Source: a virus
Virus record (IMG/VR): IMGVR_UViG_2974543594_000001
Span: 6,679-70,678 of that record
Length of the DNA: 64,000 bases
Direction: 5' to 3' (one strand)
The translations under genes were made by a program, and so were the position numbers. The notes beneath the pieces are model-generated. The model saw only the letters and a program-made list of their open reading frames with translations. It ran no database searches and was not told the DNA's origin. Shown in pieces: positions 6,235-63,918 of this stretch (position 1 is its first letter; each line of letters opens with the position of its first letter).

Positions 6235-6236
6235 TT

Positions 6237-15007: not shown

Positions 15008-15757
15008 ATGGCTGATTATGTTATTCAACCCATTACCAACGAAGACCTAACTACTAAGGTCGTTGATGGTACAGGTATCTTTGATGAGTTAATGACAGCA
15101 GCCAATGCTCATCTTACCTATCAATGGGAACAAGACCGTATTACTGGCTCATCATATGCTGAAGTATATCTGGGCCAGTTAACGGCAGTATTAGGACAGG
15201 CTGTACTCTTCCTTACTGAAAGAGATAAGACGTACCTGAATAACCTTCTGGTACAGTCGCAAATTAAATTAGCAGATGCACAGGTAGCTTTGGCTGCTCA
15301 GGATTTACTGAACAAGCAGCAAGAATTACTGAATGCTCAGAAGCAGATGGAACTGATGGAACAGCAGATTCAATTAGCTGAGAAGCAAGTTGAACTGGCT
15401 GATAAAGAGCTTCTGGTTAAAGACAAGGAAATGCAATTACTGGATAAACAGATTGCTGTTCAAGAAGCTACTGCTGATTTAACCAGACAGAAGATTAAAA
15501 CTGAGATGGCTCAGATTGCTGACTCTGTTGATGGTGTTGCTGTTACTGGTATTCTGGGTGCCCAGATTGCTCTGTATAAACAACAGAGAGATGGGTTCCT
15601 TCGAGATGCTGAGCAGAAAGCACTTAAGATTGTGGCTGATACTTGGATTACTCGTAAGACAGTGGATGACGGAACTCCACTTCCAACAGGCTTTGATACA
15701 GCTGCTGTGGATGCCTTTACGAGAAAAGTCGCAGATGGGGTTCAGGTTAATTACTAA
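15008..15757 (+). CDS. coiled-coil virion structural protein
   Basis: 249 aa. AAGGAG RBS. Long Q/L/E heptad-like region. Confidence 0.45.
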   Translation: MADYVIQPITNEDLTTKVVDGTGIFDELMTAANAHLTYQWEQDRITGSSYAEVYLGQLTAVLGQAVLFLTERDKTYLNNLLVQSQIKLADAQVALAAQDLLNKQQELLNAQKQMELMEQQIQLAEKQVELADKELLVKDKEMQLLDKQIAVQEATADLTRQKIKTEMAQIADSVDGVAVTGILGAQIALYKQQRDGFLRDAEQKALKIVADTWITRKTVDDGTPLPTGFDTAAVDAFTRKVADGVQVNY

Positions 15758-15761
15758 GGAG

Positions 15762-15781
15762 AGGGGCTTCGGCCCCTTTTT
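15762..15781 (+). terminator. intrinsic terminator
   Basis: AGGGGC-ttcg-GCCCCT then TTTT, ending about 6 nt before ATG 15787. Confidence 0.55.
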
Positions 15782-15786
15782 ACTCT

Positions 15787-18617: not shown

Positions 18618-20042
18618 ATGGCTCAGATTACTTGGAGAAATATTGATGCTCCTGACTTAACTGGAGTTGCAAGACTTCAGCAAGTTGGTGCTCAAGGTAT
18701 CCGTGATGCCATCTCTGGCTTACTTGGAACCTTTGACCAGCAGCGTCAATTAAGTAATTTAAATTTTGATACAGCACGTACTCAGAATACTGCTGCATTA
18801 CAGAATGAGTTACTTAACTATCGTGACCCTAACCAGTTACAAGAGGCAATGCCTCAGTATGCTGCTGATGCCTTACGTCAAAGATTTGGTGCAGCATTAG
18901 ACCAGAATGCTATTAACCAAACTTTGGCTACTCGTCCGGGTCAGTTAAGACAGGATATGACTGGTCAAATCCAGTTAGACCAATTACAGAAAGAACAGGC
19001 TTCTCAACCTTATGAGAACCAATTCTATTCTTTATTGGCTGCTAACCCTGCTCAGGCTGAAGCATTCCTTAAACAGAATGAAGCTAACTTTACAGACTCT
19101 CGTCAACTCTATGGTGACCTTACTGCTCGTAGACAGCAGATTGAACAGCTTAGTTTACAGAGAGCGCAGCTTGCTGACGCTCGTGCTGCAAGGGCTGCTG
19201 CTAACTCTGAGAGAGCTGCTGCTGCAAAAGAGCGTGGTAACTTCCGTAGCTATGCTCAGGAATTAAACCAATGGGTTCTGGATAATCCAGATAAACCAAT
19301 GGGCGCTAAAGCTGCTGAACTTCAGAAGAAATATGATATCAACCCGGTTACAGGTAATCAGGTTGCTACTGCTGTTGGTCAGAACATTCAGGCGTTAGGT
19401 GCTCCTACTCCTGAACAAGCTGCTGCATTAACTTCATTGACTAACCAGAATGCTCAGGCAGGTCAGCAGTTTAAACAGGATGCTACACAGGATGTACAAG
19501 CAGCATTCATTAGACAAGGTGTAGACCCTACTGTATTCGGTTTACAGGATGATACTAAGACTTCTGCCGATGATGTTATTAAGAGTCTCCAGTCACGTCT
19601 GAGTGACCCTAATGAAGTTATTGAAGCATATAGCCGAGTTAAAAAGGCATACCCTGGAGCTACTCCTAGTACCGTTGGTTACATTATTGAGAAGTCATTG
19701 TCTCCGGGTAGATGGGGTGGCTTTGCTGATGGGGTAACAGTATCGTTTGGAGATGTTGAAGACATTGCTAAACAAACAAGACAAACAGCTAACAATGCTG
19801 CTGCACGTCAAGCCTATATCGATGCTCTACGTTTAGTTGAATCATCAGGAGATTCCTTAGTTAAGGAAGCAAACGCCCCTTTGATTCAGTATCAACGCTC
19901 ACTGCCTAAAGCTAATATTACTGGTGAGGCTCTCCCTAAATTAACTCCAGTAGTGCCGGACTATACCGGTAAACGAAAAGAGTTAACTAAGTTCTTGGAT
20001 GAACGATTAGGTGACCCGAAATTCAATAGTAATACTCGTTAA
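18618..20042 (+). CDS. hypothetical virion protein (Q/A-rich)
   Basis: 474 aa. AAGAGG RBS. Confidence 0.4.
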   Translation: MAQITWRNIDAPDLTGVARLQQVGAQGIRDAISGLLGTFDQQRQLSNLNFDTARTQNTAALQNELLNYRDPNQLQEAMPQYAADALRQRFGAALDQNAINQTLATRPGQLRQDMTGQIQLDQLQKEQASQPYENQFYSLLAANPAQAEAFLKQNEANFTDSRQLYGDLTARRQQIEQLSLQRAQLADARAARAAANSERAAAAKERGNFRSYAQELNQWVLDNPDKPMGAKAAELQKKYDINPVTGNQVATAVGQNIQALGAPTPEQAAALTSLTNQNAQAGQQFKQDATQDVQAAFIRQGVDPTVFGLQDDTKTSADDVIKSLQSRLSDPNEVIEAYSRVKKAYPGATPSTVGYIIEKSLSPGRWGGFADGVTVSFGDVEDIAKQTRQTANNAAARQAYIDALRLVESSGDSLVKEANAPLIQYQRSLPKANITGEALPKLTPVVPDYTGKRKELTKFLDERLGDPKFNSNTR

Positions 20043-39803: not shown

Positions 39804-40166
39804 TTAGCGCCTTCTGAAATGTTCTTTAAACTTCTGAGTCATTTGTTCCTCATCTAACTCAAGAGATAGTTGTTCTGGGACAGGCATTGCAGCTTCACCA
39901 GCTAAAGCAAAGTAAGCAGCCCCATCGACATAATCGTCTAGCTTAAAGCTCCCACCAGATGCTCTAGCTGCTTTCAAGAAAACCATGAACATCCAACCCT
40001 GCTCCTCTGTAAGGTTCAGGTTATACATGGCATTGAATGAAGCTACAGTTCGAGCCATAGAACGCTCTGACTCTTGGTCACGCTCACTTGCTCTATCACC
40101 AATACAACGAGATGCTTCCTGCAAAATGGCAGGAGCACTATCAATAGGGAACTGTAAAATTGTCAT
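39804..40166 (-). CDS. hypothetical protein
   Basis: 120 aa ORF. Confidence 0.4.
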   Translation of the reverse strand: MTILQFPIDSAPAILQEASRCIGDRASERDQESERSMARTVASFNAMYNLNLTEEQGWMFMVFLKAARASGGSFKLDDYVDGAAYFALAGEAAMPVPEQLSLELDEEQMTQKFKEHFRRR

Positions 40167-45042: not shown

Positions 45043-45390
45043 TTATTCATGCTTCGTAGAGGCACGTAGAAGTGATTCTACGACGATTTGTTCAGGAGAC
45101 TTATCGTATCCCTTGCCCGGCTGAGTAAACGCTTTAGAATCGTTCTCAACGAGTCTATCAACGATACTCGCGCAGTTCATTGATTCAATGTTCATGTGCT
45201 TAGAAATAGCTGCCATTAACATTGAAATGAAGTATCTGCGGTCTGTTTCGTACAGTTTCTGTTCCTCAGCTGATTCAAAGTCTACCTGAAAGTGTTCAGG
45301 TATAGGTTTACCAGCAGGACTAAAATTAATAACACCAAATTTCACTATTTTCATTTGAGCACCTATGCAGATGTGAAGTAACCAAAGCAA
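45043..45390 (-). CDS. hypothetical protein
   Basis: 115 aa ORF. True start may be the internal MKIVKFG. Confidence 0.35.
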   Translation of the reverse strand: MLWLLHICIGAQMKIVKFGVINFSPAGKPIPEHFQVDFESAEEQKLYETDRRYFISMLMAAISKHMNIESMNCASIVDRLVENDSKAFTQPGKGYDKSPEQIVVESLLRASTKHE

Positions 45391-45403
45391 CTGCCGGAGG
45401 CAG

Positions 45404-46084
45404 TTACTTGATTTGCACCATTGTTAACCGTCCCTTCTCGAACACTGCACCAGTGTCGATATAGTTTTGGTTATGGTATTGCACAGGGTCTTTGGCAGGT
45501 GTGTGTCCGAAATAGAATTCGTCAGCACCTTTAATGACAGTACCTCTTGAGTTTTGGTTTTTAACCATACGTTCACGATTCCAAAGCAAAGCTTCTACGT
45601 CAACGTCTTTACCAAACTCGTACTGATTTGAAGGGTAGTCTGCATGGCAGATAACAATAGTTTTGTCATCTACTGAGACTTCAATGATACCCGGCAGGTC
45701 TGCTGCCTGAGTAAAGAGTTCGAGCACCTCTGGTTTCTGTTCTTCTGGAACTTCCAAAATCCATGTGCCTCCATTATGAAACCAGTTCATATAGGCTACA
45801 TCTCCATCATGGGTATTTGGTTCAGAAGCTAATGCATTGAGTGCCATAACTTCATGGTTACCCAATACAGTTTTAAACCAAGGTTCCTTGATTAGGCGTA
45901 AACAGCCTAAACTATCAAAACCTCGGTCAATTAAATCACCAACAGAAATGAGTAAATCAGTTTGAGTATCAAACTGGTTAGCCCATAACTGCTGTTGTAA
46001 TTCTGTGAGGCAGCCATGCAAATCTCCGACAACGAAGATTCGTTTATATTGGCTACCATCAATCTTCATATAGAGATTTTTCAT
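45404..46084 (-). CDS. calcineurin-like metallophosphatase (lambda PPase/ApaH-like Ser/Thr phosphatase)
   Basis: 226 aa. GDLHGC, GDLIDRG and GNHE motifs. Confidence 0.75.
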   Translation of the reverse strand: MKNLYMKIDGSQYKRIFVVGDLHGCLTELQQQLWANQFDTQTDLLISVGDLIDRGFDSLGCLRLIKEPWFKTVLGNHEVMALNALASEPNTHDGDVAYMNWFHNGGTWILEVPEEQKPEVLELFTQAADLPGIIEVSVDDKTIVICHADYPSNQYEFGKDVDVEALLWNRERMVKNQNSRGTVIKGADEFYFGHTPAKDPVQYHNQNYIDTGAVFEKGRLTMVQIK

Positions 46085-46152
46085 ACGACCTCCAGTAGTA
46101 GCTAGAATACGCCCCCATAGGAGGCGTATCCGAGCGCTACTGCATCGATAGA

Positions 46153-47595
46153 TTAATCTACGATGCGTTCGTGCATTTCTGCTACCTGACCGGTAACTTT
46201 GCTGACCGCCGCTTCAATTGCCGGAGCAACTGCGTTAGCGATAACTTCGTTAAAGGTCGGCTCTTTCACTTTCGGCTTGCTCTGCTCTTCGAGCAGCTTA
46301 CGCTGGGCCTGAATGGTCAGAGCGGAATCCAGCAGTGCTTTACCGCTGATTTGCTCGATAACAGTACCCGGCTCCTGATACTGGAGCTGGTGCAGCTTGG
46401 CACGTTTAACCACTTCAGCGATAACCGCCGGAATGGTACCTGCCAGCGCTTCGCCAACCAGAGTCAGGTCTTCAGATGCGTCGATGGTGTCACGACCGTA
46501 CAGGCGAACCAGTTTTTCAACTGCTTTCGCATCCGGCGGAGTCACATCGATGATGGCATCCAGACGGCCCGGACGCAGCATCGCTGGGTTGATGTTTTCG
46601 AGGTGGTTGGTAGTCAGAACGGTGATGATGCGAGAAGATTTAGTGTCGATACCATCCAGAATGTTCAGGATATCGTCCATCTTCACGCTACGTTCACCGG
46701 ATACAGCACGGTCGATATCTTCACAGAAGATAACGCACGCTTTGTCGCTGTACTGCTTAGCGAACTGAATCGCATCAGACAGCTCATCAGAGCGCGGCAC
46801 GTAAACGTAGGTAACGCCAGTTTTAACCGCGATAGACGCAGCAACTGTCGCAGCCATAGTTTTACCAGTACCGTATGGCCCACCCAGCAGTACGCCGCGT
46901 TTAACCGGCATGTGGTTGGCGATGCAGTCTTCAACGCGCTCAATCGGCGTGAACAGGTTGGTTTCAATCAGCTGGTTAACATCATCGGAATAAACCAGAG
47001 AATCGCGCGAGATACCTTGCAGATTCATGAATTCCGGTTCCGGCATTTCCAGCAGGTCGCCATCGTTATCGCGGAAGCGAATCTTAATCGCCTGACCCAT
47101 ATAGATGGATTCAGTGCGCAGTTTGTCTTCCACGGTATCGAACAGCAGCTCGATGGTACGCTCATCGGCGCGCAGTACTTTGGCTACCAGCTCAAAGCTG
47201 ATACGGCCATCTTTCTTGGCGACAGAGGTCTGAACAAAGCCTTCAACCTGCGGCAGAGAGAAGCGGCCCCACGGCACTTTTTTGGTACGGCCATAGCCGA
47301 CTTGTACGTCCAGCATCTGCGGAGGATTAGAGCCAAAGAAGCCCGGAGTCGCTTCAGCAGCAGCCCAGCCGTAACGTTCGGTCAGCGCGTTCATCAGCGC
47401 ATGGGCACCATCCCACGGGAATACGTTGTAGGTACGGCGCACAACAACTTCTTCTTCGTCGTACTTCTGACGACGCTTCAGCAGGTCGATAGCATCACCC
47501 AGCTTCATCTGCTCGGGCAGAATGATTTTTTCGCCGTGACGCACGACTTCTGCTACGTGAACTTCTTTTTCGTCTTGTTGAAGAGTTTTAGCCAT
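46153..47595 (-). CDS. classic-clade AAA+ ATPase with about 230-aa unique N-domain, encoded on a host-like GC-rich island
   Basis: 480 aa. Walker A is GPYGTGKT. Walker B is VIFCEDID. Sensor 1 is TTNH. SRH is PAMLRPGRLD. GC is clearly above the flanks and a long antisense ORF is a side effect. Confidence 0.7.
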   Translation of the reverse strand: MAKTLQQDEKEVHVAEVVRHGEKIILPEQMKLGDAIDLLKRRQKYDEEEVVVRRTYNVFPWDGAHALMNALTERYGWAAAEATPGFFGSNPPQMLDVQVGYGRTKKVPWGRFSLPQVEGFVQTSVAKKDGRISFELVAKVLRADERTIELLFDTVEDKLRTESIYMGQAIKIRFRDNDGDLLEMPEPEFMNLQGISRDSLVYSDDVNQLIETNLFTPIERVEDCIANHMPVKRGVLLGGPYGTGKTMAATVAASIAVKTGVTYVYVPRSDELSDAIQFAKQYSDKACVIFCEDIDRAVSGERSVKMDDILNILDGIDTKSSRIITVLTTNHLENINPAMLRPGRLDAIIDVTPPDAKAVEKLVRLYGRDTIDASEDLTLVGEALAGTIPAVIAEVVKRAKLHQLQYQEPGTVIEQISGKALLDSALTIQAQRKLLEEQSKPKVKEPTFNEVIANAVAPAIEAAVSKVTGQVAEMHERIVD

Positions 47596-47675
47596 TTCGA
47601 TTTACCTTTTCAGATTGGGATAAAATTACATTGTTTGAATGAAGAGAGTTAATTTCTCTTTCTTTTTCCGAGGCA

Positions 47676-47690
47676 AGCGCCGGAGGCGCT
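47676..47690 (-). promoter_or_regulatory. GGA-triloop hairpin AGCGCC-GGA-GGCGCT upstream of the AAA+ gene
   Basis: 6-bp GC stem with a 3-nt loop and no U-tract. 80 nt upstream of ATG 47595. Confidence 0.25.
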
Positions 47691-47826
47691 TTACCCTTTA
47701 CCGAACACAGGAATCACTCTGTAACCTTGATTGCGAGCAATCCGGGCTACATGTGTTTTCTTGGTTCGAATAATAAGAGTGCTGGGAATGCGAAATACAT
47801 CCCAAGCAATAGGAGATTTGGACACG

Positions 47827-48639
47827 TTACTCACCAAACTTAAGTTTGTTTTGGAAAGTACTGGATTTGACTTCATCTCGGGAAAGCTTGCCGTCCTGAA
47901 TGAAATACTGAGTAATTAACGTATTAACCATACGAATACCCAACGTATTCATCTCATAGTTATCTTTGATAAATGCTGAGATATCAGAGACAGCTTTATC
48001 TCTCTTAACTTCTGGAAATAAATCCAGATACATTGAGAGAGTAGATGAGCCTTTAAGTATATTAATTAAAGACTCCAGACTGACTTTGACAGTGTTGTAT
48101 ACCAAACCAACACGACCTAAGAACTCAGTCTTCACACCAAAGCTACGGAGCTTATCCAGAGTAATATCTGGTTCTCCGTTGAATGCTCCGGCGAAGACAA
48201 ACAGGACGTTACTTACAGGCACGTCCACATACTTGCCATAGTCGCCAAACACTGAGGTACACTCAGCTTCTAGAACCTTCAGGAATTCATTCTGAACTCC
48301 ATTAGTAGATTCATGGGCCAACTCACTATTGTTATTGCCTGCGATAAATAACTTGTCGAATTCATCTACAAAGCAAATAACAGGATTACCGTTGGCTTGG
48401 CGTAAAGGAGCTAAAGCTTTGCTTAAGCTATTACCCGATAAGCCTTCTTTGGTTAGCTGAGCAGCATTAATTTCGATGTAGTCCATCTTATGCTGGTCAG
48501 CCAGAGACTTAATTAAAAAGGTTTTTCCAGTACCACTTTCGCCAGTCAGAATGAAGTGAGGTCTCAACTGACATTCACTGGCTTTAAAGATAGAAAAGAT
48601 ACGGGAAATATCTTTCCTGAGTTGTTCTTGCTCTTTCAT
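47827..48639 (-). CDS. ClpX/HslU-like AAA+ unfoldase module (no N-terminal zinc finger, no cognate ClpP seen)
   Basis: 270 aa. ILTGESGTGKT, QLTKEGLSG, ICFVDEFDKL, NGVQNEFLKVLE, VLFVFAGAF and FLGRVGLVY parallel ClpX blocks. Confidence 0.6.
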   Translation of the reverse strand: MKEQEQLRKDISRIFSIFKASECQLRPHFILTGESGTGKTFLIKSLADQHKMDYIEINAAQLTKEGLSGNSLSKALAPLRQANGNPVICFVDEFDKLFIAGNNNSELAHESTNGVQNEFLKVLEAECTSVFGDYGKYVDVPVSNVLFVFAGAFNGEPDITLDKLRSFGVKTEFLGRVGLVYNTVKVSLESLINILKGSSTLSMYLDLFPEVKRDKAVSDISAFIKDNYEMNTLGIRMVNTLITQYFIQDGKLSRDEVKSSTFQNKLKFGE

Positions 48640-49390: not shown

Positions 49391-50488
49391 TTAACTGTTT
49401 ACGTGAATCAGTTGTCCGAACTTAACTTCTGCTCTTGGGTTATCAAGGCAAACCCAAATAACATTAGGTACAGGTGCTTTCTCCATTTGACGACAGTCTA
49501 AATCAGAGAAGACAACTATCAGTTCGGGTTTCTCTTTAGCTGCGTGGTCATACACGCAACCTAATGAGGTACCTCCTCTACCAGTGAATTCACATTGACT
49601 GATATCATCTCCTTCCTCTAACTCATACACATTATGAATCTTCGTATCGAAGGTGCAGACAGTAATCCTTTTTGGATTAAGCTGTTTTTTAATGGCATGA
49701 ATTTCACTGATGTATACAGTGAACTGTGCATCAGTAACTGAACCAGAGATATCAGTATAAAAAATGATATGCTCTAGTCCTTCAGAGTTTAATGAAGGAA
49801 GATAGATATCTGGAAGAAAACGTCTATTGACCTTCTTCCACGAATAATCATTTCGAGTCATCTCATTAACAAAGTTTCTGAGAATGTCATTCCACGGCAG
49901 TTTTGGATTTAGTAAATCCTCTAGATAGGCTCGTATGTCTCCGGGAATATCGCCGTATTGACCACGTTGAGACGCAGCAATACTGCTTCGGATAAGCATA
50001 GAGTCAATCTGAGTATTGACCTGTTCATCCGATAGACCTTGGTTTTTTTTAATATCTAAACCAAATCCACCAGAAGGTATTGGAGGGGGATTACTGAACA
50101 GCAAATCGTAGATTTGTGGAGCACTCATACCATCGTACTTGTGGTCCATCAATCCAGACTCCATCGCATAGCCAGCGTCATCCAACATATTATTTATGTA
50201 GTAGTCGCAGGCATAGTTCCAGATGGTTGGATTTCTTCCCGATAGTCTCGACATGTGTTTTAACACAACATGCCAGGTTTCATGGGCGAGAAGTGTCACC
50301 CTCATCGGCCTGGATAAATCCATAAAGAACTTTGGATTTATTTCTATACTCAACCCATCAGTACAAGCTGTGGGTACATCATCATTCCAGTTCAACTGAA
50401 GTGAGCAGAACATAGAACAGATGAAAGTATTCTTTCTTATCGAGAACAAATCTACTTTTGCTAAATCTAACGCTTTATCTTTATCCAT
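49391..50488 (-). CDS. VWA-domain protein with N-terminal HExxH metallopeptidase-like domain (DUF2201-like)
   Basis: 365 aa. HETWHVVLKH in the N-terminal half. C-terminal half has a VWA-like DxSGS motif (DISGS). Immediately downstream of the MoxR ATPase. Confidence 0.55.
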   Translation of the reverse strand: MDKDKALDLAKVDLFSIRKNTFICSMFCSLQLNWNDDVPTACTDGLSIEINPKFFMDLSRPMRVTLLAHETWHVVLKHMSRLSGRNPTIWNYACDYYINNMLDDAGYAMESGLMDHKYDGMSAPQIYDLLFSNPPPIPSGGFGLDIKKNQGLSDEQVNTQIDSMLIRSSIAASQRGQYGDIPGDIRAYLEDLLNPKLPWNDILRNFVNEMTRNDYSWKKVNRRFLPDIYLPSLNSEGLEHIIFYTDISGSVTDAQFTVYISEIHAIKKQLNPKRITVCTFDTKIHNVYELEEGDDISQCEFTGRGGTSLGCVYDHAAKEKPELIVVFSDLDCRQMEKAPVPNVIWVCLDNPRAEVKFGQLIHVNS

Positions 50489-51909: not shown

Positions 51910-51926
51910 AACGCACGGAGTGCGTT
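51910..51926 (-). promoter_or_regulatory. GGA-triloop hairpin AACGCAC-GGA-GTGCGTT overlapping stop of 51925..52335
   Basis: 7-bp stem with a 3-nt loop and no U-tract. Confidence 0.25.
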
Positions 51927-52682: not shown

Positions 52683-52708
52683 CTAACCAAGGATAGCGCC
52701 GTAGGCGC

Positions 52709-52882
52709 TTAGACAGGATAAGTTTTATCGAGACACTTGTTTAAGTTATGGCGATTGATGTACTCACGACGCTCTTCTTGTAGACGAGCTATTTCAGCTT
52801 CGTGCCCAACAATCGCTTTATCTATCTCAGCGATATTATGCTTATGTCTGTCCCAATCGAATTTGTTCATTGGCTCAGTCAT
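52709..52882 (-). CDS. small protein translationally coupled to dut (not in the ORF track)
   Basis: 57 aa: [57 protein letters not shown]. Its ATG overlaps the dut stop (TAATG). Confidence 0.35.
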   Translation of the reverse strand: MTEPMNKFDWDRHKHNIAEIDKAIVGHEAEIARLQEERREYINRHNLNKCLDKTYPV

Positions 52883-53418: not shown

Positions 53419-54279
53419 TTACTTAAATGATACGAACGGGGTAACACTACCCTGCGTCATGTAAGTTGGCAGAGCACCGTTCCATTTCTCAATAGACCGA
53501 AGGTCTTTCATCTGAGGATAGCGGTTCAGGGCTTCACCTACTTTAGCGATAGCTTCTGCTTCAGCATTTGCCTTCATGATAACGGCATCAGCTTCTGCCT
53601 GTGCTTCTTTACGCTTAACGTCAGCCGCACCGTCAGCCTGAGCACGAGCCATGTTCGCTTCAGCTTCACGCTGCAATACTTCCTGAGTACGTTGCAGAGT
53701 GGTCTGGTTCGCAGTCACTTTCGCGTTGATAGAGGCGATAACGGTTTCCGGGTATTCCGGCTTCCCAACGTAGGACAGGCTGATGACGTCGATACCAATC
53801 GGAGCCATCTCTTCCTGCATTTCTTTCAGCGCAGCATCCAGAAGGTCAGCTTTACCGCCATCAATGAACTTGTCGGTAGTCATACGACTAGCCAGACGGT
53901 TCAGGCTATCAGCGATTTTCTGCTTCATGTCTGTATCGGTAATGTCATCGATACCCTTACGATATGTTTGGAAGACAGTAGTCACTTTGGTCGGATTGAC
54001 CTTGTAAGCCATACCGATGTGATAGCCGATGGTTGTACCATCCGACATTTGGAAGTTAAACGTATCGTCATACGTCTTCATCTGTTTGAAGGTCGGGAAC
54101 GTATAGACGGTTGTGTTCCAACCAGTCCAATAACGACCGACACCGACGACTTCGCCTACGCCTTTATCATCGCCCAGCTTGTTCACTTTAATACCGACGT
54201 GACCAGGTTCTACACGGTCACAGCCAGTTAAAGTTAATGCACCTAATACCAGTGCAACTGTCAAAAATACTTTTTTCAT
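53419..54279 (-). CDS. SPFH/band-7 (stomatin-prohibitin-flotillin-HflK/C) lipoprotein
   Basis: 286 aa. Signal peptide plus lipobox LTGC. SPFH core (VEPGHVGI...). C-terminal Ala/Glu-rich coiled coil. GC-rich island. Confidence 0.65.
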   Translation of the reverse strand: MKKVFLTVALVLGALTLTGCDRVEPGHVGIKVNKLGDDKGVGEVVGVGRYWTGWNTTVYTFPTFKQMKTYDDTFNFQMSDGTTIGYHIGMAYKVNPTKVTTVFQTYRKGIDDITDTDMKQKIADSLNRLASRMTTDKFIDGGKADLLDAALKEMQEEMAPIGIDVISLSYVGKPEYPETVIASINAKVTANQTTLQRTQEVLQREAEANMARAQADGAADVKRKEAQAEADAVIMKANAEAEAIAKVGEALNRYPQMKDLRSIEKWNGALPTYMTQGSVTPFVSFK

Positions 54280-54461: not shown

Positions 54462-54739
54462 TTATCGGTTCCTTTTGGATTGATAGCCGAATTTGGAAGA
54501 CAGCTGATACTGTAGCTATCACTGGTATAACTAATAATTTTTCGAGTTCCGGGTACATAAAGTACCCAGCAAGTTACTTCAGCATCATCATCATGAATCC
54601 GTTGAATATCGACTTTCTCGAACGTTGGATTGATACCAGAATCGCTGCCGTAGGCAGCCGATAAGAAACCAACCATAATTGCAGATAGAATTACGGTAAG
54701 CAGTGCTACATCGAGCACTACTCGTCTATAACTACGCAT
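54458..54739 (-). CDS. single-TM membrane protein with small beta-rich C-domain (possible NfeD-like partner of SPFH)
   Basis: ATG at 54739 (M15 of the track ORF). One TM helix, then about 60 aa soluble domain. The NfeD idea rests on layout only. Confidence 0.35.
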   Translation of the reverse strand: MRSYRRVVLDVALLTVILSAIMVGFLSAAYGSDSGINPTFEKVDIQRIHDDDAEVTCWVLYVPGTRKIISYTSDSYSISCLPNSAINPKGTDK

Positions 54740-58906: not shown

Positions 58907-58938
58907 GATTACCTCTGATTGTTGAATTCCACCCCTAA

Positions 58939-58951
58939 CAGCCGAAGGCTG
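58939..58951 (-). promoter_or_regulatory. C-GAA-G triloop hairpin CAGCC-GAA-GGCTG, candidate vRNAP hairpin promoter
   Basis: 5-bp stem and GAA loop on the template (+) strand. About 33 nt upstream of the Macro gene start. No U-tract. Confidence 0.4.
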
Positions 58952-58972
58952 AGGAGCGAAGCGACAGAAAAA

Positions 58973-59203
58973 CTAGAACGTCTGAATAACTTTATGAAGA
59001 CAGAATATATAGATATTTTCAGTTAAATCTTTTCTGGTAAAGTAGCAATTATCACATTGAACACCTGAGCATTTAGGGATTCTATGTAATCTCATAAGCC
59101 TGCATAATTCAGGTTTACTCTCGATGAATATAATTCCTGAGCTTGAAGTATATTCAACCCTATGACATAGGGATTCTATTATTTTAATTAGTTCCCTATT
59201 CAT
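58973..59203 (-). CDS. small Cys-rich protein, MNxELIxIL paralog family
   Basis: MNRELIKIIESLC...CSGVQCDNC. Confidence 0.5.
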   Translation of the reverse strand: MNRELIKIIESLCHRVEYTSSSGIIFIESKPELCRLMRLHRIPKCSGVQCDNCYFTRKDLTENIYIFCLHKVIQTF

Positions 59204-59385
59204 AGTATTCTTTCACCTAATTCAAGAAATTTAGTTATATAAAATTTTTCTGAGGTAAATACTTTTTTCATTAAAGGGCAGGAATCACATTCAACACTAT
59301 CACAACTAAATAAATCTTTAGTCTCATGACATAGTTTTTCTGTACTACGAATAGCTCTAAGAATAACTATCAATTCATTATTCAC
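59200..59385 (-). CDS. small Cys4 protein, MNxELIxIL paralog family
   Basis: GTG start. MNNELIVILRAI...C-x8-C-x4-C-x2-C. Confidence 0.45.
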   Translation of the reverse strand: MNNELIVILRAIRSTEKLCHETKDLFSCDSVECDSCPLMKKVFTSEKFYITKFLELGERIL

Positions 59386-59557
59386 AAGAAATACCTATTA
59401 CATATCTTATGCCCATTATGTATTCAGTAGGTCCAGATAAGATGCAATATGGGCATCTAATTTTTCTGCACTTTGGATTATTAAAACTATTTAAGCAGAT
59501 GTTATAATTCTCCTTCTTAGATATCTCATTAAGAATAGTTAATAATTCTTTATTCAT
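59378..59557 (-). CDS. small Cys4 protein, MNxELIxIL paralog family (not in the ORF track)
   Basis: 59 aa: MNKELLTILNEISKKENYNICLNSFNNPKCRKIRCPYCILSGPTEYIMGIRYVIGISCE. GGAGAG RBS. Confidence 0.5.
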   Translation of the reverse strand: MNKELLTILNEISKKENYNICLNSFNNPKCRKIRCPYCILSGPTEYIMGIRYVIGISCE

Positions 59558-59724
59558 ATTATTCTCTCCCCAAATTGAATTAAGTGGTATGCATAATTAT
59601 CAATATGTTTTCTATCAATACAACAATTACGACATGATATTCCAGCACAATTTACATCTTTAATTTTATAACAAAGATGTTTATCCAAAATGGATGAGAG
59701 AATAATAATTAATTCTTGGTTCAT
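59554..59724 (-). CDS. small Cys4 protein, MNxELIxIL paralog family (not in the ORF track)
   Basis: 56 aa: MNQELIIILSSILDKHLCYKIKDVNCAGISCRNCCIDRKHIDNYAYHLIQFGERII. Stop overlaps the next ATG (ATGA). Confidence 0.5.
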   Translation of the reverse strand: MNQELIIILSSILDKHLCYKIKDVNCAGISCRNCCIDRKHIDNYAYHLIQFGERII

Positions 59725-59733
59725 ACATACCCC

Positions 59734-60000
59734 TTAAAAGGGCATGGTACTTCCAATGACTACACTGAAAATAGCATCCCTGAGAGTTTTGAAATAACGT
59801 GTACCAACATAGTACATGTTCTTTTTATTAACAGGGCGCTTGAGAATGTATGCTGATGTACCATTAATGTGGACACCCCATAATTTCTCTTCACGACTGT
59901 AAGTCACTGTATACTCAGGAACAAATCCCAGATTAACAGTTCTTACTTTACTGGTTTCTTTCACTTTCTTTGACATATTGATATCCTCTTGGATTGACAA
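59734..60000 (-). CDS. hypothetical protein
   Basis: 88 aa basic protein, unrelated to the paralog family. Confidence 0.4.
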   Translation of the reverse strand: MSIQEDINMSKKVKETSKVRTVNLGFVPEYTVTYSREEKLWGVHINGTSAYILKRPVNKKNMYYVGTRYFKTLRDAIFSVVIGSTMPF

Positions 60001-60044
60001 CTATCTAACAAGACATTGATATTGGACTACCAATATCGATAGCC

Positions 60045-60269
60045 CTATTTATAGAGTCTTTTATTAGTAACTATTATTTGATTGGAATATCCAAATACTT
60101 CTTTAATACCTAAAGGACAATGGTCACATCCTCTTTTTGTTCTACACCATTCTAATTTATCAAATAGTATGTACTCACAGAGTTCATCTATTGGACCTAT
60201 ATCATGTGCCATTCGAGATGTAGCTTTTAATCTCATGGCTCTGAGTATTTCTATTAATTCAGGATTCAT
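60045..60269 (-). CDS. small Cys4 protein, MNxELIxIL paralog family
   Basis: MNPELIEILRAM...C-x10-C-x5-C-x2-C. Confidence 0.5.
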   Translation of the reverse strand: MNPELIEILRAMRLKATSRMAHDIGPIDELCEYILFDKLEWCRTKRGCDHCPLGIKEVFGYSNQIIVTNKRLYK

Positions 60270-60483
60270 TTAATACTCTACTGGTTTTAGATACACCTGA
60301 TGGATAGTTACTTTCTTGTTCAACAGATGCAAATATTGGGCAGTTATGGCAACTGACATGAGCGCATCTTGGAATAGAATCCATATTATCCATATCGCAT
60401 ACAGTCCTACATAAATCATCTTTGGTTTCTCTGTAGCTGCTATTTACTATCGAATAGATTATTTGAGTTAATTCATTATTCAT
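60259..60483 (-). CDS. small Cys-rich protein, MNxELIxIL paralog family
   Basis: MNNELTQIIYSIV...CRTVC...CAHVSCHNC. Confidence 0.5.
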   Translation of the reverse strand: MNNELTQIIYSIVNSSYRETKDDLCRTVCDMDNMDSIPRCAHVSCHNCPIFASVEQESNYPSGVSKTSRVLNES

Positions 60484-60512
60484 GACTATCTCTCAGCGGC
60501 ATGTTAAAGCCC

Positions 60513-60680
60513 TCATTTCGAGGGCTTAGCGATTGTTCTGATGAGGACACCTAAGTAATAGGGTAGAGATATGATTCCAACCATTACACAGAACAGGAAC
60601 CATACTGCTGATGCTACAAACCAGAACAACCCAATGAGCGTGCGCAGCACGATGAACAGCAACAACAGGAATATATTCAT
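60513..60680 (-). CDS. small hydrophobic membrane peptide (not in the ORF track)
   Basis: 55 aa: MNIFLLLLFIVLRTLIGLFWFVASAVWFLFCVMVGIISLPYYLGVLIRTIAKPSK. ATG overlaps the upstream stop (ATGA). Confidence 0.4.
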   Translation of the reverse strand: MNIFLLLLFIVLRTLIGLFWFVASAVWFLFCVMVGIISLPYYLGVLIRTIAKPSK

Positions 60681-60859
60681 TTGATGACCTCACATGAATC
60701 AGTAGTTAACTTGATTGCACTACGAGGAATCCCGTTGGCAATCTTCTCTTTGACACACTTCATTTGATGCTGGTATTGCACTGTATCTTCATCAACAATG
60801 GTTATTGTTATCTTACCGAAACAAACCATAAACAGTAGAAACACTGCTAATAGACGCAT
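60677..60859 (-). CDS. small secreted or lipoprotein-like protein
   Basis: ATG at 60859 (GGAGG upstream). MRLLAVFLLFMVCFGK signal-like N-terminus. The track start is TTG inside the upstream terminator. Confidence 0.4.
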   Translation of the reverse strand: MRLLAVFLLFMVCFGKITITIVDEDTVQYQHQMKCVKEKIANGIPRSAIKLTTDSCEVIK

Positions 60860-60868
60860 GTCCCCTCC

Positions 60869-60896
60869 AAAAAATAAAGGGAACCCGAAGGTTCCC
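60869..60896 (-). terminator. strong intrinsic terminator after GC-rich 143-aa gene
   Basis: GGGAACC-uucg-GGUUCCC then UUUAUUUUUU on the minus strand. Confidence 0.65.
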
Positions 60897-60904
60897 AATA
60901 TCGA

Positions 60905-61336
60905 TTACGATGCCAGTGCATTCAGAATCGCACTGACTGCGCTGGTGGATGCGGTATGCTCGGTCTGCTCTTTACGGCGATAGAGCTGAACCTGCAACTT
61001 CGGCAGCTCCTGACCGCTACCAGCTTCCAGTTCACCACCCATTTTGACCAGAGCTTTCAGCAGCTCATTACGAGCAGCAGCCTGGTTGTTCCAGACTTCG
61101 TTGTTACCACGGATAACCAGCTCGCTCATGGTATCCAGCGGCAGGCCATACGGCAGAGACAGGAACGTATCCACCATATCCCCGTTTTCATCAGGCATCG
61201 GAACGGTTACGCCGATGTTGATGAAGAATTCAGCTTGCGGACGGTCGCCAGACTGCTGACGATTTCCGTTACCCTTACCACCCAGAGCTGCGCCGATGAT
61301 AGAACGAGCTTCGTTAGAGTTGTTGATAGTAGCCAT
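60905..61336 (-). CDS. hypothetical protein on GC-rich island
   Basis: 143 aa. Host-like GC and codon usage. Flanked by upstream GAA-triloop hairpins and a downstream terminator. Confidence 0.5.
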   Translation of the reverse strand: MATINNSNEARSIIGAALGGKGNGNRQQSGDRPQAEFFINIGVTVPMPDENGDMVDTFLSLPYGLPLDTMSELVIRGNNEVWNNQAAARNELLKALVKMGGELEAGSGQELPKLQVQLYRRKEQTEHTASTSAVSAILNALAS

Positions 61337-61379
61337 GATAAATACCTCTCAAGTTAAACGGTTTTTGGATTATTCCACC

Positions 61380-61394
61380 AGCGACGAAGTCGCT
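61380..61394 (-). promoter_or_regulatory. C-GAA-G triloop hairpin AGCGAC-GAA-GTCGCT, candidate vRNAP hairpin promoter
   Basis: 6-bp stem and GAA loop. About 44 nt upstream of ATG 61336. Confidence 0.4.
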
Positions 61395-61431
61395 CTTACA
61401 GGAGAAAGGAGAACTTAAGGAAGAACTCCAC

Positions 61432-61448
61432 CACCGTCGAAGACGGTG
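61432..61448 (-). promoter_or_regulatory. C-GAA-G triloop hairpin CACCGTC-GAA-GACGGTG, candidate vRNAP hairpin promoter
   Basis: 7-bp stem and GAA loop. Core GTCGAAGAC is identical to the hairpin at 63902-63918. Abuts the stop of 61456..61833. Confidence 0.4.
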
Positions 61449-61455
61449 ATGAAGA

Positions 61456-61833
61456 TTAGTACCGGAAGATAAAGACTGGTTTACCCAGCTTGGTCATGTA
61501 GTCAATCATGTGCTTAGTACCACGGGATTCACCATCCCAGAATGCTACCAGCACATCAGCTACATCACCCATGTCTTCATTACGAATGAAGCCTGCACGT
61601 CTAGGCTCTGACTTCCAGTCAGCAGGGAACTTATGGATAGGTAGCTTGTAGTGATAGTACCAAAGGTTAAACCCTGTGATATCAGTACCACGAGCCATAC
61701 CACACACCAGTTCTGAATCATCTGCGATGCTACCATCCATAACTAATTGCTTGATGCATGAGTCCATGTACACCATGTCGGTGAAGTCCCTTCCACCGGC
61801 TACGATTACTTTCAAAAGACCTCCTGAATACAC
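61456..61833 (-). CDS. DUF2493-like (SLOG superfamily, Rossmann-fold) protein
   Basis: 125 aa. VIVAGGRDFTD...GMARGTD...FPADW...AGFIRNEDM...VLVAFWDGESRGT matches the DUF2493 block order. Confidence 0.55.
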   Translation of the reverse strand: MYSGGLLKVIVAGGRDFTDMVYMDSCIKQLVMDGSIADDSELVCGMARGTDITGFNLWYYHYKLPIHKFPADWKSEPRRAGFIRNEDMGDVADVLVAFWDGESRGTKHMIDYMTKLGKPVFIFRY

Positions 61834-62054
61834 GGATGATTGAACGTAACAATGCGACGAGGAGCGCAGTTATCACTACGTGTTACCTGCTTAGTCAGCT
61901 CCCTCTTCTTCATGCGAGCTACGTCTGCTTTGGTACCCTGGATTAATGACTTACGCATCATGGTTATCTCCATGCTTAATAGCTAAGTAAACGACGATGC
62001 CACCTACAATGGCACCAACTAAAGACCAGAATAACTCTGTGTACCAGATATCCA

Positions 62055-62294
62055 TTAACGTACTCCGTTTAAAATTCTGTCGTGTTCTACAATCCCAGAA
62101 GCTTTAGCTTTCAGTTTGATTGCACGAATAGCACTAGCTTTATCTGTATGCAGCTTTCTCTGCATATCTTTAATTTCTGAATCAATTAATAAATCTACAT
62201 ACAGATAGTTGATTAACCACATGGCTGTAAGAGCTGATTCAATTACAAGTGGTTTAGGTATGCACTGTTCACTACTTACTGAACATGTATCCAT
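62055..62294 (-). CDS. hypothetical protein
   Basis: 79 aa ORF. Confidence 0.35.
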   Translation of the reverse strand: MDTCSVSSEQCIPKPLVIESALTAMWLINYLYVDLLIDSEIKDMQRKLHTDKASAIRAIKLKAKASGIVEHDRILNGVR

Positions 62295-62693
62295 TTAGTT
62301 CACCTTCGGTACTAAGTTAATTAACTGTTTAGCGATAGCTTCACACTCATCGACACAGTACTCCTCATCTCTCCAGACTCCGTCTGTGTACAGGAATGAG
62401 TGCTCCATAACTGTGCCCTTGTACTTCTCCGGGCATTTCATCCTGTCACCTGCATGAGCACAGTCAAATCCAATGACAGTCTTACCGTTAGACCAGTCTG
62501 GTATTCCTTGATAGGTGATACCTCCATGTGCTGCGATGTATATATCATCGTCCCCGCACCCATCGAACCTTCTGTTCTCAATGGCTGCTGGAACTTCTAC
62601 ATAACCACAATGATGTGAACCATCATTAACCAGTAGTACACATGCATTCAGGCCAGCTTCAGTAACCCATGACTTAACAACTTTGTATGACAT
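62295..62693 (-). CDS. hypothetical protein (Cys/His-rich, possible hydrolase)
   Basis: 132 aa. GSHHCGYV, AAHGGITY and GFDCAHAGD blocks. No confident family assignment. Confidence 0.4.
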   Translation of the reverse strand: MSYKVVKSWVTEAGLNACVLLVNDGSHHCGYVEVPAAIENRRFDGCGDDDIYIAAHGGITYQGIPDWSNGKTVIGFDCAHAGDRMKCPEKYKGTVMEHSFLYTDGVWRDEEYCVDECEAIAKQLINLVPKVN

Positions 62694-62695
62694 GA

Positions 62696-62815
62696 TTAGT
62701 TCTCCAGTATTCTTTTGATGAATGAGACTAGTTTGTAACGTTCAATGAATGGCAGATAACTATGTTTCTCCCATTCAATTTGAACACACTCTAATACTGT
62801 CATTTGACTGAGCAT
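62696..62815 (-). CDS. small protein (not in the ORF track)
   Basis: 39 aa: MLSQMTVLECVQIEWEKHSYLPFIERYKLVSFIKRILEN. GGGGAG RBS 4 nt upstream. Confidence 0.3.
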   Translation of the reverse strand: MLSQMTVLECVQIEWEKHSYLPFIERYKLVSFIKRILEN

Positions 62816-62890
62816 ATAGCTCCCCTGACCACCTAGATAGTCTCTAAGTGGTCTATGGTATGTTTGTGTGGGATTGGGATAGTTAAGGTA

Positions 62891-63202
62891 TTAGTTTGAA
62901 TACTCTTCTATGAGCTTGATAAGTATGTCTCCATGACATGCTTTAGGCTTACAGAAACAACCTAATGTCTTACCTTTAAGCTCAAGTAGTTGTAGATATA
63001 GGTCAGGCTCCTGATGTAGTCTCTGACGTATGTACTGCTCGTACATTGCAATGCATAATTCTCTGCCATATGCTTGAACTGTATAAGGATTTCCCCATAC
63101 ACTACCTCTGCCGATATAGACATCGTATGGTTCCTTGTACTTGTTGACTACACGAGTGGATGGTTCTGGAATTGAACCAATGATTGGTTTGATGATTCCC
63201 AT
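62891..63202 (-). CDS. DUF4326 family protein
   Basis: 103 aa. YIGRGSVWGNPY and C-terminal GCFCKPKACHGD match DUF4326 hallmarks. Confidence 0.5.
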   Translation of the reverse strand: MGIIKPIIGSIPEPSTRVVNKYKEPYDVYIGRGSVWGNPYTVQAYGRELCIAMYEQYIRQRLHQEPDLYLQLLELKGKTLGCFCKPKACHGDILIKLIEEYSN

Positions 63203-63231
63203 TTGAGTACCTCTGGCTTATTCATCCAAGA

Positions 63232-63244
63232 GTACCGAAGGTAC
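63232..63244 (-). promoter_or_regulatory. C-GAA-G triloop hairpin GTACC-GAA-GGTAC, candidate vRNAP hairpin promoter
   Basis: 5-bp stem and GAA loop. 30 nt upstream of ATG 63202, in a 256-bp AT-rich non-coding region. Confidence 0.4.
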
Positions 63245-63423
63245 AAGAGATAGTTTCTAAGTGATGTATAGGATTTGTATAGTACCTAGAAGAGATTTAA
63301 ATAGGTACAGGTAAGCTACCCTATTACCTCTTATTAAAACCTCTCACAATGCTTCCTAGAGCGTTATAGCGATATGTATCTATATACAGTACTTACTATC
63401 TATCAGATGTGTTGTGTGAATTG

Positions 63424-63441
63424 ATTTTAAATACCTGCTCC
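63424..63441 (-). terminator. hairpin CCTGCTC-cgaa-GAGCAGG downstream of first early gene
   Basis: 7-bp stem. On the minus strand it has a UUCG loop followed by GUAUUUAAAAU (weak U-tract). Confidence 0.35.
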
Positions 63442-63458
63442 GAAGAGCAGGCATACGG

Positions 63459-63794
63459 TTATTTATTGAGGTGCTTAGCTACCAGTGCATCGAATACCTT
63501 CTTAACGTCTTCATCTGCTCCAGCCATAGCTTTGGTTGCTTCTGCATGTACCTCTGCTACTTCTTTAGCTGCTTCCATAACATATTTGGTACGGAAGATT
63601 TCACCCTCTACCTCACGTTTGATGGCACGATGATGACGGAGATTCTCAATCTCATCATTACCCCATTCGGTTAAGGCTACAGCCATATTTGCGGTATTAG
63701 CTACAGCTACTGCACCACGCTCAATAGCATTGAGAGCAGATACAGTTGAAGAAGATACAGCACCGAAGATACCAATAGAGTTTACAGGTTTCAT
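63459..63794 (-). CDS. hypothetical early protein
   Basis: Second ATG (MKPVNS...) has GGAG 6 nt upstream. The track start 63800 abuts the GGAG. Confidence 0.45.
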   Translation of the reverse strand: MKPVNSIGIFGAVSSSTVSALNAIERGAVAVANTANMAVALTEWGNDEIENLRHHRAIKREVEGEIFRTKYVMEAAKEVAEVHAEATKAMAGADEDVKKVFDALVAKHLNK

Positions 63795-63819
63795 ACACAT
63801 CTCCAGACAATTTAAAGGA

Positions 63820-63837
63820 GCCTATGTATCCATAGGC
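63820..63837 (-). promoter_or_regulatory. hairpin GCCTATG-tatc-CATAGGC 20 nt upstream of first early gene
   Basis: 7-bp stem. Followed on the minus strand by CCTTTAAATTG. Confidence 0.3.
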
Positions 63838-63901
63838 AGACCATGTCAAATATATGGCATATAGCTCATACGAGTAAGCAGACATGGATGCATTACTCCA
63901 G

Positions 63902-63918
63902 TAGAGTCGAAGACTCTA
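63902..63918 (-). promoter_or_regulatory. C-GAA-G triloop hairpin TAGAGTC-GAA-GACTCTA, candidate vRNAP hairpin promoter
   Basis: 7-bp stem and GAA loop. Core GTCGAAGAC shared with 61432-61448. About 100 nt upstream of the first early gene. Confidence 0.4.

Follow-up and report, generated by a model that had tools for sequence, protein, structure and literature searches.

The DNA analysed here is a 64,000-nucleotide (nt) stretch (hereafter the window; positions 6,679 to 70,678 of IMG/VR virus record IMGVR_UViG_2974543594_000001) that corresponds, at 100% identity, to the final 64 kb of the genome of Klebsiella phage KpCHEMY26 (NC_049467.1/MN163281.1), an N4-like phage (Schitoviridae, Humphriesvirinae, Pylasvirus). 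Within the window the gene gp41, which encodes a 480-amino-acid (aa) AAA+ protein, stands out as an island of high GC content. We find that this compositional anomaly is one of optimal-codon usage, a classic signature of translational selection, and that the codon pattern is ancient, lineage-wide and vertically inherited. In particular, the island is very probably a product of translational selection and not of recent transfer of the gene.

An earlier note on this DNA had described gp41 as a GC-rich gene with AT-rich flanks, forming an island distinct from the surrounding genome. Consistent with this description, the 1-kb segment at 46001-47000 has a GC content of 0.515, when compared to about 0.41, and ranks first among 64 such segments. 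In 200-nt segments the GC content steps from 0.38 to 0.515 at ~46100 and from 0.50 to 0.42 at ~47550, which are the ends of the coding sequence (CDS). The CDS itself has a GC content of 0.529, against 0.415 ± 0.023 for non-overlapping gene-sized segments (maximum 0.488; z = 5.0). When gp41 was compared with those annotated CDS in the window that are 100 aa or longer (52 in number), its overall GC content had a z of 3.5, and the excess was found at the third codon position (GC3 0.572 versus 0.368 ± 0.063; z = 3.3) and at the first (GC1 0.647 versus 0.524 ± 0.049; z = 2.5), the second position being normal (GC2 0.370 versus 0.364; z = 0.1). Note that gp41 is the strongest such island but not the only one; an N4 gp2-like gene for a single-stranded DNA-binding protein at 60905-61336 (minus strand) is similarly GC-rich (GC 0.535, GC3 0.569) and codon-optimised.

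Codon counts point to the origin of this excess. Leucine is encoded by CTG at 37 of 41 positions (28% CTG in the rest of the phage), proline by CCG at 18 of 22 (12% CCG in the rest), arginine by CGT or CGC at all 28 (39% AGA/AGG in the rest) and glycine by GGT or GGC at 28 of 29; ATA is missing from the isoleucine codons, and the codons for His, Asn, Tyr, Phe and Thr are shifted toward those ending in C. Optimal codons that end in A or T are favoured too (CGT, GGT, GTT at 52%, TCT at 48%, ACT, GAA at 74% and AAA at 67%), a pattern that a GC-rich donor would not give, and all of the rare-tRNA codons (AGA, AGG, ATA, CTA, TTA and GGA) are avoided. Thus GC3 is raised because the preferred enterobacterial codons mostly (though not all) end in G or C, and GC1 is raised because leucine is CTG instead of TTR and arginine is CGY instead of AGR. 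The codon adaptation index (CAI) of gp41, 0.628, is the highest of the 52 CDS, with the major capsid protein at 0.598, the gp2-like gene at 0.574, an SPFH gene at 0.505 and the remaining CDS at a mean of 0.315 ± 0.092, and it is high throughout the gene (0.54-0.73). (The SPFH/prohibitin-like gene, at 53419-54279 on the minus strand and named 'lipoprotein', has an intermediate GC content and a raised GC3 of 0.49, which suggests that it too is highly expressed.)

To place the codon usage of gp41 in the context of its family, we examined homologues in six relatives, namely E. coli phage Pollock, Salmonella phage SP-058, Erwinia phages phiEaP8 and Frozen, and Pseudomonas phages Littlefix and KPP25, which span four host genera and locus GC contents of 0.35-0.59. 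The homologue ranks first in GC content at its locus in five of the six. In all six, CTG makes up 70-93% of the leucine codons, AGR and ATA codons number zero, and the codons that would read as stops on the other strand (TTA, CTA and TCA) number between 0 and 3; in all four enterobacterial relatives the homologue ranks first or second in CAI. The Pollock homologue has a GC3 of only 0.30 and yet has the top CAI among the 32 genes examined at its locus, which argues that the constant feature of the family is optimal codons and not GC content. The same codon trend is seen in the homologues of PhiW-14 (effective number of codons 29.0, GC3 0.86), a lambdoid prophage, a Salmonella element of ~100 kb and an N4-like phage of Paracoccus.

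The earlier note had offered two explanations for the island, recent horizontal acquisition and strong selection for host-like codons. Under the first, gp41 would have come from the host or another GC-rich donor and would not yet have been ameliorated to the AT-rich phage; the compositional steps are indeed sharp at the ends of the gene, its composition is near that of Klebsiella (GC about 57%), and the family is patchy among unrelated phages and missing in N4. However, the anomaly in the six relatives tracks the codon preferences of each host group and not the composition of one donor. Moreover, we asked how often the codon for a conserved residue is a different one in KpCHEMY26 and in its orthologues. 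For gp41 this fraction was 0.309 against SP-058 (0.398 ± 0.072 for 17 neighbours) and 0.426 against Pollock (0.434 ± 0.044 for 15 neighbours); gp41 has thus co-diverged with the surrounding genes, and the synteny of its locus is kept across Humphriesvirinae. We found no direct repeats bracketing gp41, no mobility genes beside it (its neighbours are a phosphatase gene and an AAA/ClpX-like gene) and no DNA similarity to it in 5,426 complete E. coli genomes, and its best protein matches are located on phage-sized contigs. The look of imported GC-rich DNA is shown by a different part of the window. The 3' part (~4700-5600) of the tail-fibre gene at 3217-6234 (plus strand) combines a GC3 of 0.55-0.60 with a CAI of only 0.22-0.26, a pattern that would be expected of a receptor-binding module exchanged from a GC-richer source and that contrasts with the high CAI of gp41. 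Of the features that define a recently acquired genomic island, gp41 therefore has the atypical composition, but not absence or normality in relatives, a divergent history or scars. As the gene is present in relatives with the same composition, which the earlier note itself had named as the observation that speaks against it, recent acquisition is largely refuted, and we regard it as extremely improbable; selection for host-like codons, by comparison, is borne out by the top CAI among 52 CDS, the inclusion of A/T-ending optimal codons and the low GC3 of the Pollock homologue.

Three points weigh against translational selection as the source of the island. First, the CAI weights are those of E. 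coli, after Sharp & Li (1987), and are not derived from Klebsiella (the raw codon counts are independent of these weights). Second, the synonymous divergence of gp41 is slightly below that of its neighbours (by ~1.2 standard deviations against SP-058, and not at all against Pollock), where strong purifying selection on synonymous sites might show a larger deficit. Third, very high expression and abundance of gp41 would be deduced from codon usage alone.

Note that the family as such is mobile between phages over much longer time scales, which accounts for the presence of gp41 but not for its composition. The gene is absent from phage N4 itself, and the family occurs in other Schitoviridae subfamilies, KPP25, PhiW-14 and phages of Gordonia and Mycobacterium, as well as in a lambdoid prophage, where it lies downstream of cI, and on a Rep3-bearing Salmonella contig of ~100 kb. 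We also made several observations on members in unusual settings. Two members outside lytic phages lie at 6001-7455 of locus L012 and 6001-7452 of locus L014. The member in the lambdoid prophage is ~800 nt downstream of the cI repressor gene and co-oriented with it, and the ~100-kb Salmonella contigs with family members carry Rep3, SSB, primase and HU genes and resemble phage-plasmids. In Gordonia phage Keelan (locus L009, 4884-6350) the homologue and two small upstream genes are inserted in reverse orientation between the tail-assembly-chaperone and tape-measure genes, a typical moron position.

We also considered whether the GC excess stems from amino-acid composition, from a DNA or RNA signal inside the gene, or from a real gene on the other strand, given that GC1 is elevated and that a full-length antisense open reading frame (ORF) of 493 aa is present. 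We attach hardly any probability to these possibilities. GC2, the position most tied to amino acids, is normal; the rise in GC1 comes largely from synonymous Leu and Arg choices; Rfam families gave no match anywhere in the window; and CAI is uniformly high along gp41. With regard to the antisense ORF, the earlier note had ascribed it to the depletion of stop codons, and correctly so. The ORF is codon-aligned with gp41 (same phase modulo 3), such that its stops are TTA, CTA and TCA in the sense strand, of which gp41 has 0 when 19.0 are expected from the codon usage of the rest of the genome; the absence of these codons is what leaves the frame open. In four of the six relatives the frame is interrupted (by 3 stops in Pollock, 1 in phiEaP8, 2 in Frozen and 2 in KPP25). 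By all these signs the 493-aa ORF is a by-product of codon choice and no gene.

If codons were selected, they may have been selected for something other than abundance of the product, such as the speed, timing or accuracy of translation, or independence of rare tRNAs that host defences or phage shut-off would deplete. The window contains no tRNA genes, gp41 avoids every rare-tRNA codon, and no other strongly optimised gene in the window is as long as its 480 aa, all of which would fit. On the other hand, the other most-optimised genes are those for capsid and the gp2-like protein, and the analogue of the latter in phage LUZ7 is that phage's most expressed gene, so that abundance is the simplest common factor. 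We therefore consider selection for speed or rare-tRNA independence to be improbable, although less so than the two alternatives dealt with above, and take gp41 to be a gene whose optimised codons probably serve high expression.

The regions on either side of gp41 may bear on how such expression is achieved. Upstream lies a hairpin with a GGA triloop, whose core (AGCGCC-GGA-GGCGCT, 47676-47690) extends to 7 bp at 47675-47691. SP-058 and Pollock keep this hairpin with a compensatory change in the stem (GCGCC/GGCGC to GCCCC/GGGGC), the loop varying at its middle base only. Promoters of the N4 virion RNA polymerase (vRNAP) are template-strand hairpins with a stem of 5-7 bp, a 3-nt loop with a purine at its centre, a closing C:G pair, and -9C, -10G, -11G and -12A (PMC4496689). 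In LUZ7, mapped early promoters are hairpins with 3-nt loops (Drc, the gp2 analogue and the phage gene with the highest expression, is driven by a tandem pair of them), and mapped middle promoters are GC-rich hairpins with a stem of at least 6 bp and a loop of 3-4 nt, located ~15 bp upstream of a G start (PMC9163698). We scanned the window for triloop hairpins. Of those of the C-GNA-G class at leftward genes, 16 occupy the template strand and 2 the coding strand; triloop hairpins overall are 2 times, and those with GGA/TCC loops 5 times, as frequent as expected from shuffled sequence. As a positive control, the same scan of N4 (1-30 kb) returned exactly three hairpins, at 90, 557 (before gp2) and 4546 (before gp15), all of which have TGG at positions 9-11 after the loop. 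In the window, a GG occurs in one of two registers after 12 of the 16 C-GNA-G template hairpins, as compared to 4 of 71 other triloop hairpins (background 0.046). The seven with GG at positions 13-14 are all in the middle-gene region except the one at 60639, whereas the five with GG at positions 10-11, as in N4, are in or border the early region (58939-63918); the shift between the classes is 3 nt. These findings suggest that the two registers mark, for Humphriesvirinae, two sets of candidate promoters, one early (vRNAP) and one middle.

Most of these two-register hairpins are kept in SP-058 and Pollock. A tandem pair (61380-61394 and 61432-61448), identical in those two phages, is directly upstream of the gp2-like gene, which, with its optimised codons, thereby parallels Drc of LUZ7. 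A hairpin of the GG-at-13-14 class, at 54644-54658, is upstream of the SPFH operon.

The hairpin before gp41 resembles the N4 and LUZ7 promoters in that it is on the template strand and has a C:G-closed, 3-nt G-N-A loop, and it resembles the middle promoters of LUZ7 in its GC-rich stem of at least 6 bp and in the G start that would be ~15 bp away. We rejected it as an N4-type early (vRNAP) promoter on account of its register: in N4 the start is ~11 nt from the loop centre, a geometry that the gp41 hairpin fails while fitting that of the LUZ7 middle promoters, and its GG is 3 nt farther from the loop than in the early-region hairpins of KpCHEMY26 itself. By analogy with LUZ7, the transcript of gp41 would start at about 47668-47669 and have a 73-nt leader, the ribosome-binding region of which is kept in SP-058 and Pollock. 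In Littlefix, two C-GGA-G hairpins followed by TTTTG lie directly upstream of the homologue. Several observations count against a promoter, however. The GG is 3 nt farther from the loop than in N4; position -8 is C where N4 conserves G; the folding energy is unexceptional (z = -1.5 as RNA and -2.0 as DNA); and the hairpin adjoins the stop codon of the upstream ORF gp40, such that, unlike the N4 and LUZ7 promoters, it lies where a gene ends and may be no more than a terminator. (Both roles may combine, the promoter-like element also terminating the upstream unit.) A scan of 44-50 kb for sigma-70 promoters and terminators was uninformative, with promoter-like sites below shuffle expectation, and we found no mapping of transcription starts for Humphriesvirinae in the literature searched. 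On balance, we put at about even the chance that gp41 forms its own hairpin-promoted transcription unit, an arrangement that would fit the very high expression suggested by its codons.

Downstream of gp41 the transcript is predicted to fold into a terminator-like structure (-27.2 kcal/mol, z = -4.14; none of 200 shuffles folds as well) that lacks a clean U-tract. SP-058 and Pollock keep the hairpin with compensatory changes, and the Erwinia and Pseudomonas relatives, together with two further homologues, have canonical terminators, with a stem and a T-run, at the same place. Hence gp41 is bounded on both sides by conserved hairpins. The earlier note's claim that hairpins coincide with the boundaries of the gene holds upstream but not downstream, where the inner hairpin begins 22 nt past the stop codon and spans 22-48 nt beyond it. 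The note had also placed an imperfect palindrome at the stop; there is one, TAGATTAATCTA, but it is perfect and is not conserved in relatives, and it is probably there by chance.

gp41 matches phrog_10440, a family of 'unknown function', from end to end (E = 1e-269), and an exhaustive search (E ≤ 0.001) gathered 1088 family clusters at 50% identity. Its sole Pfam match is AAA (PF00004, aa 235-351; 59.9 bits against a cutoff of 21.2), and in calling it a classic AAA+ protein the earlier note was right at the superfamily level. The acidic pair of Walker B is ED in 42 of 42 close sequences and in 119 of 120 divergent representatives, and the sensor-1 asparagine, N330, within a TTNH motif, is invariant among the 42. 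The segment of pore loop 1, which joins strand beta2 to helix alpha2, has a 7-residue deletion relative to Cdc48 D1, such that TYVYV-P(R/H)x-DEL enters the helix directly, and the aromatic-hydrophobic-Gly pore-loop motif is missing in 114 of the 120 representatives. gp41 is a soluble AAA+ ATPase with an ED Walker B and without pore loop 1. In a Foldseek search with the structural model of the monomer, ranks 1-10 and 13 were Bcs1 and ranks 12 and 17 were YjoB, with TM-scores of only 0.30-0.46. A phmmer search of the PDB returned Cdc48/p97/VAT proteins (AAA core, E = 5e-25). We also searched the PDB with the segment from Walker B to the Arg finger, expecting Bcs1 first, and found p97/VAT/AFG2 first instead. 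The N-terminal domain, which the earlier note could not place, has no sequence match and only weak fold matches, although the protein as a whole does resemble Bcs1 and YjoB. On the strength of the motifs and the model, gp41 is probably related to these two proteins.

The names deposited for gp41 and its kin ('metalloprotease; FtsH', the name of gp41 itself, '26S proteasome regulatory subunit' and 'cell division protein') would have it be an FtsH-type metalloprotease or a threading unfoldase of the ClpX/proteasome type, and its AAA core does match FtsH, PAN and CDC48 models at E values of 1e-11 to 1e-17. However, these NCBIfam models match the AAA core only, at 41-61 bits against curated cutoffs of 500-1008 (49 bits against 600 for the FtsH model TIGR01241), and the 480 aa contain no HExxH motif, no transmembrane segment (Kyte-Doolittle hydropathy in 19-aa segments peaks at 1.57, within the AAA small domain) and no Pfam match to a peptidase. 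Together with the loss of pore loop 1, this leaves a protease or threading unfoldase with almost no probability.

Several other searches returned little. The N-terminal extensions of longer family members (600-860 aa) contain no Pfam domain, and a defence-system library gave only weak AAA-core matches, to IetA and TRIP13, that we judged non-specific. No neighbour or partner gene is conserved across the N4-like phages, KPP25, PhiW-14, the Gordonia phage, the lambdoid prophage and the phage-plasmid-like contig. In a study of virions of the related Shigella phage B2 by mass spectrometry we came across no mention of an ATPase, which is consistent with a non-structural role. Literature searches on phage AAA-ATPases, pore loops and anti-defence found nothing, and those on N4-like phages, AAA proteins and codon usage surfaced only generic papers on codon usage. 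The positions of the features described here are collected in Table 1.

Table 1. Positions in the window of gp41, its protein segments and the nucleic acid elements around it.
Feature	Position	Strand	Remarks
AAA+ CDS gp41	46153..47595	-	480 aa, phrog_10440; GC-rich codon-optimised island
N-terminal domain, aa 1-203	46987..47595	-	aa 1-19 disordered; alpha/beta core 32-161; two strands ~170-189
AAA module, classic clade, aa ~204-440	46276..46986	-	Pfam PF00004; top Foldseek matches Bcs1, YjoB
Walker A GPYGTGKT, aa 239-246	46858..46881	-	G239, G242, G244, K245 and T246 invariant
Walker B VIFC-ED, aa 288-293	46717..46734	-	acidic pair inverted (ED, not DE)
Arg fingers (R341, R344) of the second region of homology, LRPGRLD	46564..46575	-	invariant
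C-terminal extension, aa 441-480	46156..46275	-	long helix 448-479 (AlphaFold2 secondary structure)
Antisense ORF, 493 aa	46171..47652	+	arises from codon choice; no gene
Template-strand hairpin AAGCGCC-GGA-GGCGCTT (C-GNA-G triloop class)	47675..47691	+	promoter-like element
GG, candidate transcription start	47668..47669	-	positions 13-14 after the loop
5' leader, A-rich	47596..47667	-	unstructured (fold z = +0.78); conserved ...CTGAAAAGGTAAA... ribosome-binding region
Terminator-like RNA structure	46097..46141	-	12-bp inner hairpin 46105-46131 in 6-bp outer stem
12-nt perfect palindrome TAGATTAATCTA	46149-46160		overlaps gp41 stop codon
Hairpins with GG at 13-14 after the loop (7)	45389-45405, 47675-47691, 51910-51926, 52695-52709, 54644-54658, 60639-60651, 32234-52		
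Hairpins with GG at 10-11 after the loop, N4-like (5)	58939-51, 61380-94, 61432-48, 63232-44, 63902-18		
Small ORF gp40, 61 aa	47691..47876	-	upstream of gp41; stop codon overlaps hairpin base

gp41 sits among leftward-transcribed middle genes, with a ClpX-like AAA gene, gp39, and the small ORF gp40 on one side and a NinI-like phosphatase gene, gp42, on the other. The ORF gp40 overlaps the 3' end of gp39 in a different frame; it is labelled 'non-conserved' in the record and yet is kept, unannotated, in SP-058 and Pollock (counterparts at ~18680-18883 of locus L004 and ~15669-15872 of locus L003), with the conserved pattern ...PIAWD(V/I)FRIP...RTKK...IAR..G(Y/F)RVIPVFG.... Product names deposited for KpCHEMY26 are unreliable beyond that of gp41 (46153-47595), which lacks a protease domain. 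The 'HNH endonuclease' gp36 (49391-50488) is a DUF2201 metallopeptidase plus VWA protein similar to N4 gp25, the record note of the 'phosphofructokinase' gp49 (39804-40166) names an HNH endonuclease, and the 'CLP protease' gp39 (47827-48639) is a 270-aa AAA protein with weak similarity to the ClpX core. Elsewhere, the GC minimum of the window (0.305, at 59001-60000) coincides with an 827-nt gap without annotated genes (58907-59733) between a macro-domain gene and hyp19, near the boundary of early and middle genes; this gap could be regulatory or an origin.

The account of gp41 that we favour, and that we consider reasonably probable as a whole, is as follows. gp41 would be a vertically inherited middle gene of an N4-like phage. 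Almost all degenerate codons in gp41 are those that highly expressed enterobacterial genes favour, and its GC excess would be a side effect of long-standing translational selection. A hairpin promoter of its own would drive transcription of the gene in the middle phase, and a strong hairpin lies downstream. Its product would be a soluble AAA+ ATPase of a single-ring type and of the Bcs1/YjoB kind that acts as an ATP-driven, oligomeric and possibly chambered chaperone or remodeller; its clients would be folded or partly folded proteins, handled without threading, and it would not be a protease. A chaperone mechanism like that of Bcs1 or YjoB, which is suggested by motifs and a predicted fold, is the more tentative part, and we give it somewhat less than an even chance. 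Less likely still, and in our view rather doubtful, is the broader idea that phrog_10440 constitutes a third branch of AAA+ proteins with an ED Walker B, beside Bcs1 and YjoB, that is large and phage-borne and comprises soluble, chambered chaperones, heavily translated from a dedicated promoter in many unrelated phages. If this were so, the family would handle a folded client, for example in assembling or protecting a phage complex, or alternatively in taking apart a complex of the host, such as one that serves in defence or stress.

As a compositional anomaly, gp41 is nothing unusual. It shows that codon adaptation, and not gene transfer, can underlie a GC island in an AT-rich phage, for which the tail-fibre segment provides the contrast. 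Its codon usage also points to an uncharacterised AAA+ family, misannotated as FtsH, Clp or a proteasome subunit, whose members probably rank, in several phage lineages, among the non-structural proteins made in the largest amounts. The evidence from motifs and fold would set this family alongside Bcs1 and YjoB, for which alone among AAA proteins an action on folded clients in a chamber has been proposed, and makes it a concrete target for phage cell biology. In addition, two candidate promoter sets of Humphriesvirinae, early and middle, come out of the hairpin analysis.

That translational selection adapts the codons of highly expressed phage genes to the host is well known, and the enrichment of optimal codons that gp41 shares with the capsid gene and the gp2-like gene conforms to this. 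What differs is that the top-ranked gene encodes an uncharacterised non-structural ATPase and not a virion protein, and that this recurs in several unrelated phage lineages.

With respect to other AAA proteins, the highest sequence similarity of the AAA core is to Cdc48/p97/VAT and Rpt/PAN (E = 5e-25), and gp41 keeps Walker A, the Asn of sensor 1 and the two Arg fingers in LRPGR. In contrast to these proteins, gp41 has pore loop 1 deleted, Walker B inverted and one AAA module instead of two, and its N-terminal domain is neither a double-psi barrel nor a coiled-coil/OB arrangement. By fold, Bcs1 matches best (E = 1e-16 to 1e-14 across 416-445 columns) and, like gp41, has an ED Walker B and no conservation of the canonical pore-loop residues. 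By strand count the model of gp41 would agree as well, with two strands before the five-stranded RecA sheet where the sheet of Bcs1 is seven-stranded, and we presume that the TTNH sensor-1 motif resembles that of BCS1L. gp41 differs in having neither a transmembrane anchor nor a membrane context, and it has no match to Pfam BCS1_N. Telling against membership of the Bcs1/YjoB branch, p97/VAT D2 outscores Bcs1 by sequence, and Bcs1 is not among the best 60 matches. Mitochondrial Bcs1/BCS1L is an AAA heptamer that translocates the folded Rieske protein (PMC7994207), and the inversion of Walker B to ED has been described as exceptional to Bcs1 and YjoB (PMC9565160). The latter, from Bacillus subtilis (PDB 7w42/7w46), is a soluble, hexameric, 'bucket-hat'-shaped AAA+ protein that has been proposed to be a substrate-specific chaperone (PMC9565160). 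YjoB and gp41 have in common a single AAA module after a family-specific alpha/beta N-terminal domain (~160-200 aa, without sequence relatives), solubility without a transmembrane segment, and the ED Walker B, and YjoB is among the top Foldseek matches to gp41 over ~420-430 columns. The N-terminal domains of the two have no detectable sequence similarity, gp41 has in addition a C-terminal helix of ~40 aa, and whereas YjoB is restricted to Bacillales, the gp41 family occurs in phages of Proteobacteria, Actinobacteria and, reportedly, Enterococcus.

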